Shown here: positions 24,093 to 49,442 of the stretch, in pieces
Layout: every line of letters begins with the position of its first letter
How positions within the stretch are numbered: position 1 is the stretch's first letter
Source of the DNA: Eledone cirrhosa
Taxonomy: Eukaryota
Direction: 5' to 3'
DNA length: 64,000 bases
Assembly: GCA_964016885.1 (NCBI GenBank)
Contig: OZ024751.1
Location: 48,484,001 to 48,548,000 of the forward strand
The notes under the pieces: generated by a model
Told to the model about the DNA's origin: nothing
Seen by the model: only the letters and a program-made list of their open reading frames with translations
The model's database searches: none
Program-made: the position numbers and the translations under genes

Positions 24093-24299
24093 AACGAAGG
24101 AAATGTGGTAAGGAACCAGGTGGACCATAACGCACCAAAGTACTCAATACTTAGGGTAGTAGAGTGGGTAATAGGAACGAGTAGGACCCCGACGGCTGAG
24201 CTCAAGCCGTTTCGACGGCTAATTCTGGACTAGAATTCAGTCCAGAATTAGCCGTCGAAACGGCTTGAGCTCAGCCATCGGGGTCCTACTCGTTCCTAT
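24093..24299 (-). mobile_element. palindromic half-HHR element family P in (TA)n
   Basis: Palindrome 24171-24299 plus tail 24093-24170; homologous to 33881-34077, 44964-45058 and 49235-49442. Confidence 0.85.
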
Positions 24300-25439
24300 A
24301 TATATATATATATATATATATATATATATATATATATATATATATATATATATATATATATATATATATATATATACACATATATATAAATGTATATATA
24401 TATACAACACGCGACCAAAAAGATCTCACCACATGAAGAGAGCCCTAGACCCATGAAGACTCCCTAAATAGACAAAGACCCGCACAGAAAATGACACTCT
24501 CACAAAAACCCCTCCACTACATACAAATCCCTGCACATACAAACCCCTCACACCACTTACTACATATATAGAGGATAAATACTATTTTTTGTTAATATTT
24601 AAAATGACGTTAAAAAGGTCGTAATACGACATACAAAAAAACATCACGGACGCAGCAATAACATTATAAAAAGCAAAACATTTAGAAAAAAACAATAAAA
24701 ACAAAATGCTTTAAAATGCAAAAAGTAAATAAGTAATGAAAAAGAAATTGCAGTCCAAACAATGTAACACTAATGAAGGTAATTAGAACAGTTGATTTAA
24801 GAAGTTGATATAGTTGATACAGTCAACCAATCAGCCAAGCATCCTTTGCCATCGCCATTTTGAAAAACGTACAGTTACTTTCAAAACTGAGCAAGCAAAG
24901 CAATCACTGCTTATTGTCCGTCGTTTTTTGGTAGTGTTATTGTGGTTGTTATCAGTGTTGTTATTGCTGTTGCTGTTGATGTTGTTGTTGTTGTTAATAT
25001 AGTTGTTGTTGTTAATATAGTTATTGTTGTTGTTGTTAATATAGTATTGTTGTTGATGTTGTTGTTAATATAGTTATTATTGCTGTTGTTGTTGTCGTTG
25101 TTTCTGTAGTTGTTAATATAGCTATTGTTTTCGTTGATGTGCTGCTCTGTTGTTTACTATCTTTGAGGGATAGTGACGTTATTTCTGTCGTCTGGTTCAA
25201 CCATATTGTCGTTGATGATGTTGTTGCAGTTGTTGTTATGGCTACTGTTACAATTGCTGAATTTGCTATGGATTTTGTTACTGTTGTTGTTACAGTTTAT
25301 TTTTTAACGTTTGAATGAGCCTTAGTAATAAAATAATAGATAGTATTATTTGTATTATTAGTAGTAATAGTATTAGAAAAAGAAGGACTCGTATCATTAG
25401 AGACAGCAGTAGTACTGTTGTATCAGTACATGTTGTCAC

Positions 25440-25892
25440 AGCAACAGTAGTGGTAGTAGTAGTAGTAGTGGTAGCAGTAGTAGTGGTATAGTAGTAGTAG
25501 TAGTTGTTGTAGTAGTAGTAGTAGTAGTAGTAGTAGTAGTAGTAGTAGTAGTAGTAGTGGTAGTACTAGTGGTATAGTAGTATTAGTAATAGTAGTAGCA
25601 GCAGTAGTAGTGGTATAGTAGTAGTGGTATGGTAGTAGTAGTAGTATCAGTAGTAGTAGTGGTATAGTAATAGTGGTATGGTAGTAGTAGTAGTAGCAGT
25701 AGTAGTAGTGGTATAGTAATAGTGGTATAGTAGTAGTGGTATAGTAGTAGTGGTATAGTAGTAGTGGTATAGTAGTAGTAGTGGTAGTAGTAGTAGCAGC
25801 AGTAGTACTGGTATAGTAGTAGTATAGTAGTAGTGGCATAGTAGTAGTAGTAGTAGTAGTAGTAGTAGTAGTAGTAGTAGTAGTAGTAGTAG
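25440..25892. repeat. (TAG)n compound microsatellite
   Basis: Direct inspection. Confidence 0.95.
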
Positions 25893-26221
25893 TGTGGTTT
25901 GCTGTTTACATGGCAGATTCACAAGGAACATATCAGGCTGCCACTGTTCAAAATGCGTTAGTGTGGTGATATCGTTAATATCACTATGATACATAGATAT
26001 GCCTGCCTGTCTCTCTGTATGTGTGTGTATATATATATATATGTGTGTGTGTGAGGTGTGTGTGAGTGTGATTTTTGGGCGTGTGTATAACAATAATGAA
26101 GTAGATGTCAGTGTGCTTGAATCTTATATCATTTTAATGATATATATATATATATATATGTATACCATGATATTAAATAAATGGAAACTATATTTATAAA
26201 ACCATATTTATTTTATTACAT

Positions 26222-28790
26222 ATATAGATCCTGGAGTAGGAGACAAGACAAAACATATAAGATGGGTAATATCTATCCTACGAGGTTACCCTTTAATAAA
26301 AGAGTTTGCATACCACAACAAATAGATGCCGAGACAGAGGCACAGTTCACCATAGCTAGAAATAAGATTAGACAAATAGTAGACCGGTATACTAAGAGAC
26401 AGAGCAGACCAGAGGCCCAACAACTTGGGAGGAAACCTGTAGAAGGCTTGGTTAGCCTCAAGCGGCGCACAAGGGATGGTGAGGTAGTATGTCTACCCAC
26501 GGATAAGTCTGGTAGGATGTCAATAGATAGCATGCCGAACTACATCCAGGCTATGCAACTCCACATCACCAACTCGAGCTAAATTGCACAGCAAACACAT
26601 GATGGGAGAGAGAAAATCCTCAACGCTCACACGATGATGTGGACCGACATCCTAAAGCCAAGCAGACGCACTGCCAACAACTTCCAGGCGTCTAACAATG
26701 GCATACCACCCTTGTATGGGCTTCGCAAAGACCACAAGACAGTCGACGACCCGACAACAGGACCACCAACAAGACCCGTATGCGGAGCAAATATAGCTAG
26801 CAACTACAGGATCTCCTACTTCATCTCAATGGTTATACGCCCCATAATCAAGATGTCCCCAGATGTATGTGACAGTACAGAGGACATCCTCAGCAGAATC
26901 AGTGAGTGCAACAAAAACAGGAACCTATCCAACTGCACAATAGGCAGCATGGATGTGGTATCACTGTACCCATCCATTAACATTGATTTTGCTGTGAAAA
27001 AATGTGTGGAGATGATCATTGAGAGTGAGGTGGAGTTCTGCGACGTCGACACAGACGAACTGGGCCTCCTACTTAGACTTACCTACGACACTGACTACCT
27101 AGACAGCCATGACCTTAGACGTTTCTGCCCTAGTAGACCCATAAGAGGTAGAACCCCCACCATAACCTCAATGGCTAAAAAGACTCCCATGGGAAGGTAG
27201 ATTGGGTGGACCAAAGCTATACGGACCCCCCCAAACAATGATCAGGTAAGAAAAATGGTCGCACATGCAATAGGGGCTAGTATCAAAACTACCCTAAAGG
27301 GCCACATATTCAAGTTCAACGAGAAGATCTACACCCAAAATGAGGGAGCAGCCATTGGCGTCAGCATAGCTGGTGATGTTGCCAACCTTTTCATGGTATG
27401 GTGGGAAAGGAGACTTAAAGATCTCCTTAATGAGAGCTCCATAGACCTCATCATGTACTCTCGTTACGTAGACGATATCAATATAGTTATAAGAACATCC
27501 CCACTAGAGAGCACTAACAAGTTTGATTGAGAACGTAGCACAATAGAAAGCATCTAGCAGAGTAATTCCATACACCAGAGTGTAACTGTAACTATCGACT
27601 ACCCTTCCAAACACCCTAACGATAGACTACCTGTATTAGACACGGAGCTCTGGATTAACACTATAGACGAGAGAGCCCAAATTCTCCACTCACACTATGC
27701 TAAACCCATGGCCTCCAAATACTTGATACTCAAAAACTCAGCAATGTCCAGTAGTGTTAAGTTTAATATTCTGATCGCAGATTTGGTACGAGTGATGAAG
27801 AATGTGTCCCGCATGTGCGACCCAACAGAAATGGAAAGACACATCCAACACTTCATCAACCGCATGCAGTTCTCTGGCTACAACCAAAGAGACAGAGTCA
27901 GAGTATACGAAGGAGCCATGGAGAAGTATAAGACGCTCATAGAACTGGACATGAAAGGAATTTGCCCATTATACAGGAGTAAATCATGGAATAGCTTAGA
28001 TAGGGCTAGACATAAGATAAGGGAAAGCCACCTCATGGTACGACAACCAGAGATACCAGAGTGTCATGTTTGTGGACGCTACCCCAGGAGGGAAATTAGC
28101 TAACCAGTGTAGAAAGGCCCTGAGAAAGACCCACTTAAAGATTAAGGTGGTATAAAAGCCAGGAACCACCATAAAATCCCTGATCAGCAAAACCTACTCT
28201 TTTAAGAAAACCCACTGTACTAATAGGAAATGTATCATATGTAAGGTAAACCCCCGGAAAAACTGTAAAACTAGAAACGTAGTCTATAGCATAAGATGTA
28301 CAGAGGGTACTTGCAGAAACATGACAACAACATACATAGGCGAGACAGCTCGTAGCATAGGTGAAAGGATAGACCAACACTGGGGGGAACTAAAAGGACG
28401 AAAAAACATCAAACAAAACACTCTACACACACGCAAACGCATGCGCAAAGAAGACAAAATAAAATAAACAAATAAATAAATATATAAACAGACTAAATAA
28501 ACATGGCGTAGAAAATACAATGCAACGGGAGGAAACAATAGCACCACTGACGATGTTGCAGGTGTGCAACGAAAGAACTTTGATAAACTATATATATATA
28601 TGTTTGTGTCTATATTGTATCTGTATTATTTTTGACCGTTGGTCAGTCAATGGCAACATTGAGGACCGAATAAATTAGATTACCGATATAAAAGACACAG
28701 AAGCGAAAAGCGAAAACCAACCAAACTGAGTGTTTTCTGTTATTAATTCTGGCAATATTACACAAATATGACCCTCCCCAAGTATAACAA
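26222..28790 (+). mobile_element. Penelope-like retroelement (Naiad/Neptune-like), 5'-truncated and decayed: RT, Cys4 linker, GIY-YIG, 3' pseudo-LTR
   Basis: ORF pieces 26181, 26634, 27255 and 27708 are one frame: PTDKSGR, LYGLRKDHK, RPVCG, MDVVSLYPSI, QNEGAAIG, RYVDD, LPVLD, HYAKPM. After a frameshift near 28020: FVDATPGG, CTNRKCIIC..NCKTRNVVYSIRC..YIGETARSIGERIDQH. TA repeats at both ends. Confidence 0.93.
28543..28584 (+). ncRNA. hammerhead ribozyme motif in the PLE pseudo-LTR
   Basis: ACCA-CTGACGA-T-GTTGCA-GGTG-TGCAAC-GAAA-GAAC-TT-TGAT. Confidence 0.8.
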
Positions 28791-48478: not shown

Positions 48479-48568
48479 TCCTCTTGATAAGTCGGCAGAC
48501 CTCACAAAAGCACTATATCTCTATGATGTATTGTTTTTGATTATGCCACGAAACTACGTAGTCGAGGA
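48479..48568 (+). ncRNA. hammerhead motif, U3-A8 core variant
   Basis: TCCTC-TTGATAA-GTCGGCA..TGCCAC-GAAA-CTACGTAG-TC-GAGGA. Confidence 0.82.
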
Positions 48569-49091
48569 ATCTAGACGCAGTTTAGGTATGATACATCTTA
48601 TTACTAATTATATCTAAATGTTTCTTCTCTCTTCAAAATGTACTTTTGGCTCTGATACTGGTTCAGTCTAATCCATTCGGATTGGTTTGTCCCAGTTATT
48701 CATAGAGCAACATCGGTTAAGGTTGGCACCATTAACTCAAGGATGGATGTGGATATATTCATGTATATGTATGTGTCCGCATGTATCTGTGTGTTTCTCA
48801 ATATATTGTATATATAAATATATATCACGATAAATTAACGGAGGCATAGGCCCTCGCTATTCCCTGTAAATAATGTCCTCAAAGGAGAAGAGATCCTGAG
48901 CTCTTTAAAATAAAATATGTTGAAAAGGTAATACACCAGAGAGAGAGATATACAATATTGTATATATATATATATATATATATATATATATATATAGAGA
49001 GAGAGAGAGAGAGAAGTGGTTACACAACAGTTAGTTCACCATACCGAAAACAAGTGTTTCACCTTAGCGGATCCTCAGCTCGTAATTATTA

Positions 49092-49129
49092 CGAGCTGAG
49101 GATCCGCTAAGGTGAAACACTTGTTTTCG
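49092..49129 (+). ncRNA. minimal hammerhead motif (mirror copy 49045-49082 on the minus strand)
   Basis: CGAG-CTGAGGA-T.CC-GCTAA-GG.T-GAAA-CACTTG-TT-TTCG. Confidence 0.7.
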
Positions 49130-49234
49130 GTATGGTGAACTAACTGTTGTGTAACCACTTCTACCTAACTCGTCCCATGGACTGAGTGCTCTACCACTAC
49201 GGATACTACCTTCCAGTGTTCTATCACTATATAT

Positions 49235-49442
49235 ATAGGAACAAGTTAGACCCCGACGGCTGAGCTAAAGCCGTTTCGACGGCTAATTCTAGTCCAGAAT
49301 TCTAGTCCAGAATTAGCCGTCGAAACGGCTTGAGCTCAGCCGTCGGGGTCTAATTCGTTCCTATTACCCACTCTACTACCCCAAGTATTGAGTACTTTGG
49401 TGCGTTATGGTCCACTTGGTTCCTTACCACATTTCCTTCGCT
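49235..49442 (+). mobile_element. palindromic half-HHR element family P
   Basis: Palindrome 49235-49364 plus tail to (TA)n. Confidence 0.85.

Follow-up and report, generated by a model that had tools for sequence, protein, structure and literature searches.

Four palindromes of a repeat family, here called family P, lie in a window of 64,000 nucleotides (nt) of the Eledone cirrhosa genome (assembly GCA_964016885.1, contig OZ024751.1, positions 48,484,001 to 48,548,000 of the forward strand; coordinates below are those of the window). They occupy 24171-24299, 33881-33996, 44964-45058 and 49235-49364, where an original prediction had placed them, and each is flanked by (AT)n. In that prediction the palindromes hold the 3' half of a hammerhead ribozyme, the other half being replaced by a reverse complement of the downstream sequence, and the nascent complementary DNA (cDNA) had snapped back at the stem II hairpin. 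The reading of GAAA, stem III and GTC in the arms was correct and fits a ribozyme alignment of 38 copies; the 13-bp helix taken for stem II proved to be the product of the inversion, a mirror of the downstream strand, and not the natural stem II. Judged by their sequence, the palindromes are best classed as 5'-end stubs of a Hydra-type Penelope-like element (PLE).

The arms of the four copies differ in length, as had been claimed, but not at random. Copies 1, 2 and 4 each combine an arm ending at TTCC|TAT with an arm carrying a tail of ~78 nt beyond that short end (24094-24173, 33995-34074 and 49362-49440), while copy 3 is exceptional in that both of its arms are tail-less. The centres are also unlike among copies, in agreement with the prediction, with a 7-nt filler in copy 1, a duplicated 13-mer in copy 4, and a 1-nt filler or none in the other two (Table 1, in which the A of AGTCC is numbered +1). 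A CTGAGGA word at 54722-54790, proposed as the retained ribozyme core of a diverged relative, did not hold as such: the same position is mostly CAGAGTA in 29 other sister-family loci, and the word is a variant of one in the antisense tail, joined to the other arm through a deletion.

Table 1. Arms, centres and related features in the window
Feature	Position	Strand	Description
Copy 1, tailed arm	24094..24231	-	+1 A at 24231, then stem II 3' strand, GAAA, stem III, predicted cut, tail end
Copy 1, centre	24232..24238		7-nt filler copied from nearby arm; both arms reach +1
Copy 1, tail-less arm	24239..24296	+	+1 to fixed short end before (TA)n
Copy 2, tail-less arm	33883..33940	-	Reaches +1, five bases further 5' than tailed partner
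Copy 2, tailed arm	33942..34074	+	Starts at +6; 1-nt filler at 33941
Copy 3, tail-less arm	44964..45013	-	Reaches +1
Copy 3, second tail-less arm	45014..45067	+	Starts at +6 (rare no-tail class)
Copy 4, tail-less arm	49238..49290	-	Ends at +6
Copy 4, centre	49291..49303		13-nt duplicated filler
Copy 4, tailed arm	49304..49440	+	From +1; GAAA 49322, predicted cut 49344/49345, short-arm end 49361, tail to 49440
Sister family P3, decayed member	54722..54830	-	Antisense tail fused via deletion to sense arm
Family U, unrelated	49014..49225	+	Same short-arm/tailed-arm layout, centre upstream of whole CTGAGGA core; used as control

Palindromes of family P across the genome

The palindromic core of family P was searched in the 3.0-Gb genome, in which 15,274 exact pattern matches were found, corresponding to at least that many palindromes. 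The palindromes are not chance products, because the reversed-pattern control gave 0 matches. Centres were scored in 51 copies, namely the first 50 genome matches on one contig and one neighbour, taken regardless of centre, with a pattern that admits only centres within about 15 nt of stem II. An inverted arm was present in 30/30 loci fetched with the best-matching query; these loci and those selected by CTGANGA are biased for centre type and were therefore excluded from the centre counts.

The palindromes share a fixed layout, in which one arm is tailed and the other tail-less. This was observed in 49/51 of the loop-II palindromes, in 49/50 and 48/50 of two sets of short palindromes, and in 8/8 long inverted pairs. 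The outer ends are fixed in 46/51 and 47/51 copies at two UAU triplets bounding the tail; in the intact master element described below, both arm ends fall just before a TAT triplet, able to pair with an (AT)n primer. Among the 49 copies with one tail, the arm extending further 5' was the tail-less one in 19 and the tailed one in 20, with a tie in 10, and the loop between the arms was under 3 nt in 24/51 copies. Bases missing from a cDNA cannot appear in the copy it makes by folding back, nor can a cDNA without a tail give rise to one, which argues against snap-back.

Each insertion appears to have formed independently, as the prediction had suggested, since 34 distinct centres were found in the 51 copies and the same centre occurs in different subfamilies and in both mirror orientations. 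The two arms of a copy match, which also agrees with the prediction: of 46 copies that could be scored for the subfamily marker, 33 had it alike in both arms, where 7.9 were expected (10,000 permutations, maximum 17; 5/51 copies were without a scorable marker). Propagation as a whole palindrome, offered earlier as an alternative, was not supported, centres not being inherited within subfamilies. Neither does the family resemble a miniature inverted-repeat transposable element (MITE) or another non-autonomous DNA transposon, given its asymmetric ends and many centres; a target duplication is unreadable in (AT)n targets.

Five chimeras (L146, L039, L163, L049, L169) join P head to head with family Q, a family that carries a hammerhead itself; three of them have one tail, one has both tails and one has neither. 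A few further copies pair arms of two subfamilies, or two tails. Beside these, at L040, L056, L033, L186 and L196, P arms are linked with palindromes of family R or with inverted sequence that codes for GIY-YIG and stems in part from the open reading frame (ORF) of P itself; from their sequence, these are read as composite insertions with several template switches.

Parent element and intact hammerhead

The parent of family P was found at L208 and L366, where P sequence opens a 231-nt 5' untranslated region (UTR), followed by an ORF of 719 amino acids (aa), a 3' UTR and a whole ribozyme running into the next P. The unit is 3,118 nt with P sequence at both ends and an 830-nt inverted copy in front, and family P corresponds to the first ~140 nt of the 5' UTR, belonging to the pseudo-long terminal repeat (pLTR) of this intact element. 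The intact master, L366:4080-6236, encodes 719 aa in which motifs of a reverse transcriptase (RT) and, at the C-terminus, of a GIY-YIG domain were read from the translation. This single ORF with RT plus C-terminal GIY-YIG, together with the partial tandem of pLTRs, the inverted 5'-truncated copy and the one-ended tail seen in L366 and the 8/8 long inverted pairs, places the element among the endonuclease-bearing (EN+) PLEs. Its 2,054 homologues carry PF26215, PF28514 and one PF01541; direct Pfam searches with five ORF pieces and the whole ORF, and a PDB sequence search, gave no match. The master contains the Hydra-clade motifs RWR (a variant of RWK), DKT, CNCPDRSIC, CNLC and CKH, lacks CCHH, with a single Cys between VIY and YIG, and inserts into (TA)n. 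A hammerhead fold is present, but with a U3-A8 core and a long loop II where the clade has a canonical hammerhead, and an Rfam search of an intact copy was negative. The Penelope-like origin and hammerhead ancestry proposed earlier were supported.

A Neptune-like assignment of the master was dropped, as the Hydra features fit better. A non-LTR retrozyme, defined by short non-coding head-to-tail units each with a ribozyme (10.64898/2026.07.22.740005), was likewise rejected, as the tandem unit here codes for protein and measures 3,118 nt. Other mobile elements have left decayed ORFs at L209, L210 and L220, upstream of the P insertion, and at L221; they belong to a different non-LTR reverse transcriptase family and to a helicase-bearing element that resembles a Helitron.

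The centre fillers led to the sequence upstream of P, which was found at 3,526 places, and an intact hammerhead was then recognized in 6,833 P copies genome-wide (control 0). In these long copies stem I (ACCCC) comes first, then the core YTGANAA, a G, two unpaired bases, stem II, a loop of ~33 nt and the P sequence. The natural stem II consists of G10.1-C11.1 and 6-9 bp closing this loop. The core is mostly of the U3-A8 type (UUGANAA; YUGANAA overall). The members with an intact core that the prediction had called for exist, but with YUGANAA in place of the expected CUGANGA. CTGANGA upstream of P sequence gave 38 and 42 hits, none forming a consistent ribozyme family; judged by eye from 30 loci and the listings, they are centre fillers, arm variants and chimeras. 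In sister family P2 the pattern matched 207 times, with an intact hammerhead in most of those listed.

On 38 aligned P and P2 copies the hammerhead fold paired 92.1% of cells, against 24-51% in slid controls, and three stem II pairs were changed on both sides. T10, G11, A12, A14, A15 and GAAAC were invariant, although these were built into the search patterns. Three helices surround YUGANRA, GAAA and UH with G10.1-C11.1, as in a type I hammerhead, and the three stems also come out when sequences are folded singly. One subfamily branch (L279, L280, L295, L296) has a C3-A8 core mismatch, is predicted to be inactive and offers a natural control for the cut-site class of palindromes described below. 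An Rfam search of the window gave 621 matches, and the 150 listed are driven by microsatellites.

Two centres of inversion

The main centre lies in loop II. The furthest 5' base in the 51 copies is +1 or +2 in 30, -1 to -3 in 8 and +3 to +8 in 13, and in 3,735 copies, by a hand count, both arms are complete to +1 with 1-12 nt between them. The +1 A sits within loop II in the word T-Y-A-G-T-Y, which fits the insect initiator consensus; a second such word stands at -4. P2 keeps the initiator-like word at the same distance despite its differing loop, and most of about a dozen P2 palindromes, tallied by hand, end there. Family Q arms start at C|AGTT in 5/5 of the P-Q chimeras, and in family U (30 loci), both arms of which hold a whole CTGAGGA hammerhead, the 5' ends cluster at two adenines upstream of that core, often after an untemplated G. 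These ends suggest that +1 is the transcription start of the element, placed within the loop II of the hammerhead that it carries. For Penelope, promoters that contain an initiator and lie internally or in the pLTR have been reported (PMC2377424, PMC3846280). A splice acceptor at TTTAG|TCC was considered and rejected, the arms keeping AG with no upstream exon appearing.

The second centre coincides with the predicted ribozyme cut. A search for short palindromes gave 1,082 matches; among the 50 listed, both arms ended at the predicted cut with 1-16 filler bases in 16, a further 3 were blunt at the cut, and about half had collapsed through stem III. When the search was also opened to downstream centres, 1,048 matches (control 11) were obtained. 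In 50 of these, 20 ended at the cut, comprising 16 (one mutation artefact removed) and 4 blunt joins, and no other position exceeded 4/50 once blunt joins were set aside. By extrapolation the cut-site class amounts to about 420 copies, or about 3 per 100 relative to the main class. C17 was absent in 15/15 of the filler-bearing copies. A recurrent GTC junction between G runs (7/50 by eye) is explicable as a 3-nt microhomology join and was left uncounted. Indirectly, the cut-site class suggests that self-cleaved RNA served as template, with the ribozyme probably being active in vivo. The cut-site palindromes (L226-L275) come mainly from the youngest subfamilies.

Several other palindromes were noted in the window. 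Two lie beside (AT)n at 23731-23827 and 23881-23998, with a sense arm apparently starting at AGTT, an initiator-like word. Family S, found elsewhere in the genome fused to P and P2 (L143, L154), is represented at 35210-35380 by a palindrome with its centre in the stem II region plus a tail, and at 24007-24068 by a short relative retaining a CTGAAGA core. A family T palindrome (33680-33870) abuts copy 2. Other stubs of a like kind are a 53-nt palindrome at 40264-40316 and a 346-nt palindrome with duplicated centre and tail at 50706-51140, and a hammerhead-like CTGATGA..GAAA motif with a long stem II occurs at 20019-20080.

Proposed double priming, its rivals and known systems

The palindromes are probably best explained as double-primed insertion stubs of the Hydra-type PLE, formed by two cDNAs joined head to head. 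Reverse transcription would be primed from both cut strands of the (AT)n target, at two internal sites on what is usually a single RNA, both cDNAs would run off the RNA 5' end, the first being displaced by the second, and their ends would then be joined; the displacement and the joining are steps that we infer. A normal transcript starting at +1 would begin with half a ribozyme, unable to cut, and priming on its 5' pLTR copy would give a palindrome of 60 + 140 nt. The minor centre would arise from a self-cleaved read-through or tandem RNA as template, ending at GUC|GGGG, whereas priming on the 3' pLTR copy would yield long inverted copies with whole ribozymes and scattered junctions. Junction fillers could derive from untemplated addition, microhomology and short local copying. 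If this is true, double priming alone explains the tail, the inverted pLTR and the head-to-head chimeras. A wider generalization, held with even confidence, is that PLEs integrate without ordinary second-strand priming, by a dimeric enzyme using two start sites on one RNA, that the centres record RNA 5' ends genome-wide, that a start in loop II disarms the 5' copy, and that the U3-A8 hammerhead cuts in the germline.

Snap-back of a single cDNA has to be weighed against this explanation. One cDNA primed from the tail end would run off the RNA 5' end, fold back there rather than at stem II, and copy itself until the endonuclease or TAT microhomology stopped it, with later deletions blurring the centre. 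The match of arms within a copy suits it, a 5-nt loop agrees with centres such as TTCT-AGTCC-AGAA, and the fillers copied from the arm next to them demonstrate that snap-back synthesis over short stretches does occur. Nevertheless it is unlikely, for in the 19/49 copies noted above, including window copy 2, the tail-less arm has 5' bases missing from the tailed one; nearly half of the loops are under 3 nt; and tail-less arms are joined to other families, while some copies hold two subfamilies or two tails. The original prediction, with a folded stem II hairpin setting the inversion point, is very improbable. Centres do lie 5-7 nt from the stem II 3' strand, and a like effect operates at stem III, through whose self-complementary sequence about half of 50 short palindromes collapsed, but the stem of the palindromes differs from the natural stem II, through which 6,833 intact copies were copied without a break. 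Moreover, the centres of P fall in loop II, those of family U lie upstream of the whole core and those of the second class at the cut, and the short loops and cross-family joins count against this model as well.

Double priming may also be accepted with other meanings for the two centres, +1 being a pause of the RT at a loop II hairpin and the GGGG end a stall of 5'-3' decay or trimming at the G run. The P loop II can indeed form a hairpin over +1 to +5, and the cut site coincides with the start of the G run. This reading is judged distinctly unlikely, as P2, whose predicted fold lacks that hairpin, has the same +1 end, a start at pyrimidine-A is likewise seen in families Q and U, and a stall at stem III would copy C17, which the filler-bearing copies lack. 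Self-priming on an antisense template, proposed for PLE junction palindromes in PMC3846280, and MITE-like spread of the whole palindrome, to which the fixed outer ends lend some appeal, are together highly improbable. A centre at the sense-strand ribozyme cut and a sense initiator favour a sense strand as template, members of a subfamily do not inherit a common centre, the ends are asymmetric, and the sequence is that of a retroelement 5' UTR.

Several points tell against the double-primed reading or parts of it. The samples are limited to the first 50 matches on one contig, and the two sets of 50 short palindromes overlap. The cap signature is weak: the base before +1 in 100 P arms, counted by hand, was T in 63, G in 17, C in 14 and A in 6 (G over A, p 0.035), and 3/16 cut-site copies, which should have no cap, show an extra G too. 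Rather than a single point, the 5' end forms a cluster, because some of the arms with T before +1 are templated to -4 or beyond. A candidate TATA box at -30 in P was rejected, the word not being kept in P2. For the ribozyme, the covariation reflects one split between two subfamilies and not many events, fold z-scores are modest (-0.6 to -2.7), an Rfam search of an intact copy gave no hammerhead match, and some subfamily copies carry the C3-A8 core mismatch. CATAC subfamilies account for 0/19 in the cut-site class against about 13/46 in the main class. Finally, a match between arms does not tell whether they came from a single RNA or from two RNAs made at one source locus.

Family P offers natural junctions by the thousand with which the models can be told apart, predicts two RNA 5' ends exactly, and includes an intact young master suited to biochemical work. 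If the reading is true, PLE integration is a double target-primed reaction distinct from that of LINEs (long interspersed nuclear elements), and which ribozyme copy can cut is decided by a promoter that lies within a ribozyme loop. The inverted layout, the junction palindromes and the tail were already published; what is added here is a set of counts, an intact ribozyme of variant type, the master element and the likely start site inside loop II. A literature search covering few subscription papers found no double-priming account of PLE inversions and no genomic evidence of PLE hammerhead cutting. The supplementary PLE ribozyme lists of PMC8557442 and PMC4209133, which lay outside that search, may hold family P. 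In the parts of PMC8557442, PMC11167929 and PMC4209133 drawn on here, the origin of PLE inverted ends and hammerhead cutting in vivo are stated as open.

In L1 twin priming, both target strands are primed on one RNA, and the 5' part is inverted without being duplicated; here, by contrast, both cDNAs would reach the 5' end, resulting in a mirror duplication. For R2, the position of the 5' junction and its untemplated bases reflect the ribozyme cut (PMC3774820), but that ribozyme is like that of hepatitis delta virus (HDV), and the cDNA is joined to the target instead of a second cDNA. With PLE hammerheads (PMC4209133) family P has in common the type I topology, a stem II that begins with unpaired bases, G10.1-C11.1 and a palindromic loop III, and the U3-A8 core is found also in the Schistosoma Cercyon hammerhead; family P differs in its five-pair stem III and a long loop II holding the likely transcription start. 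Adineta vaga Penelope elements (PMC3846280) share the head-to-head inverted pLTR, the junction palindrome, an optional tail and an initiator-like word in the pLTR, but their palindromes were read as antisense self-priming, whereas the counts here favour two primings on sense RNA.

The closest systems are the Hydra clade and Poseidon. As described for the Hydra clade (PMC8557442), and likened here by motifs and layout, the master has a single ORF, RW-basic plus DKT, a CxCX5C linker, CxxC and CxH on either side of the E and N residues, a GIY-YIG that lacks the CCHH pair, insertion into (TA)n, a partial tandem with an inverted 5'-truncated copy, and a one-ended tail. It differs in the U3-A8 core and ~33-nt loop II in place of a canonical hammerhead, in a tail of ~78 nt (there 30-40), in its unit of 3.1 kb and in RWR (there RWK). 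In vitro, PAc Poseidon cuts both strands and extends them, starting at two internal sites by which the tail is defined (PMC11167929), and its AT-rich target, a ribozyme about 100 nt upstream of the start sites and uncut RNA as main template are shared with family P. In the part of that report used here, the inverted arm is unexplained and there are no reads ending at the ribozyme cut, whereas in family P the inverted arm can be tied to the second start site, an insertion class begins at the cut, and the start sites lie at UAU triplets matching the target.

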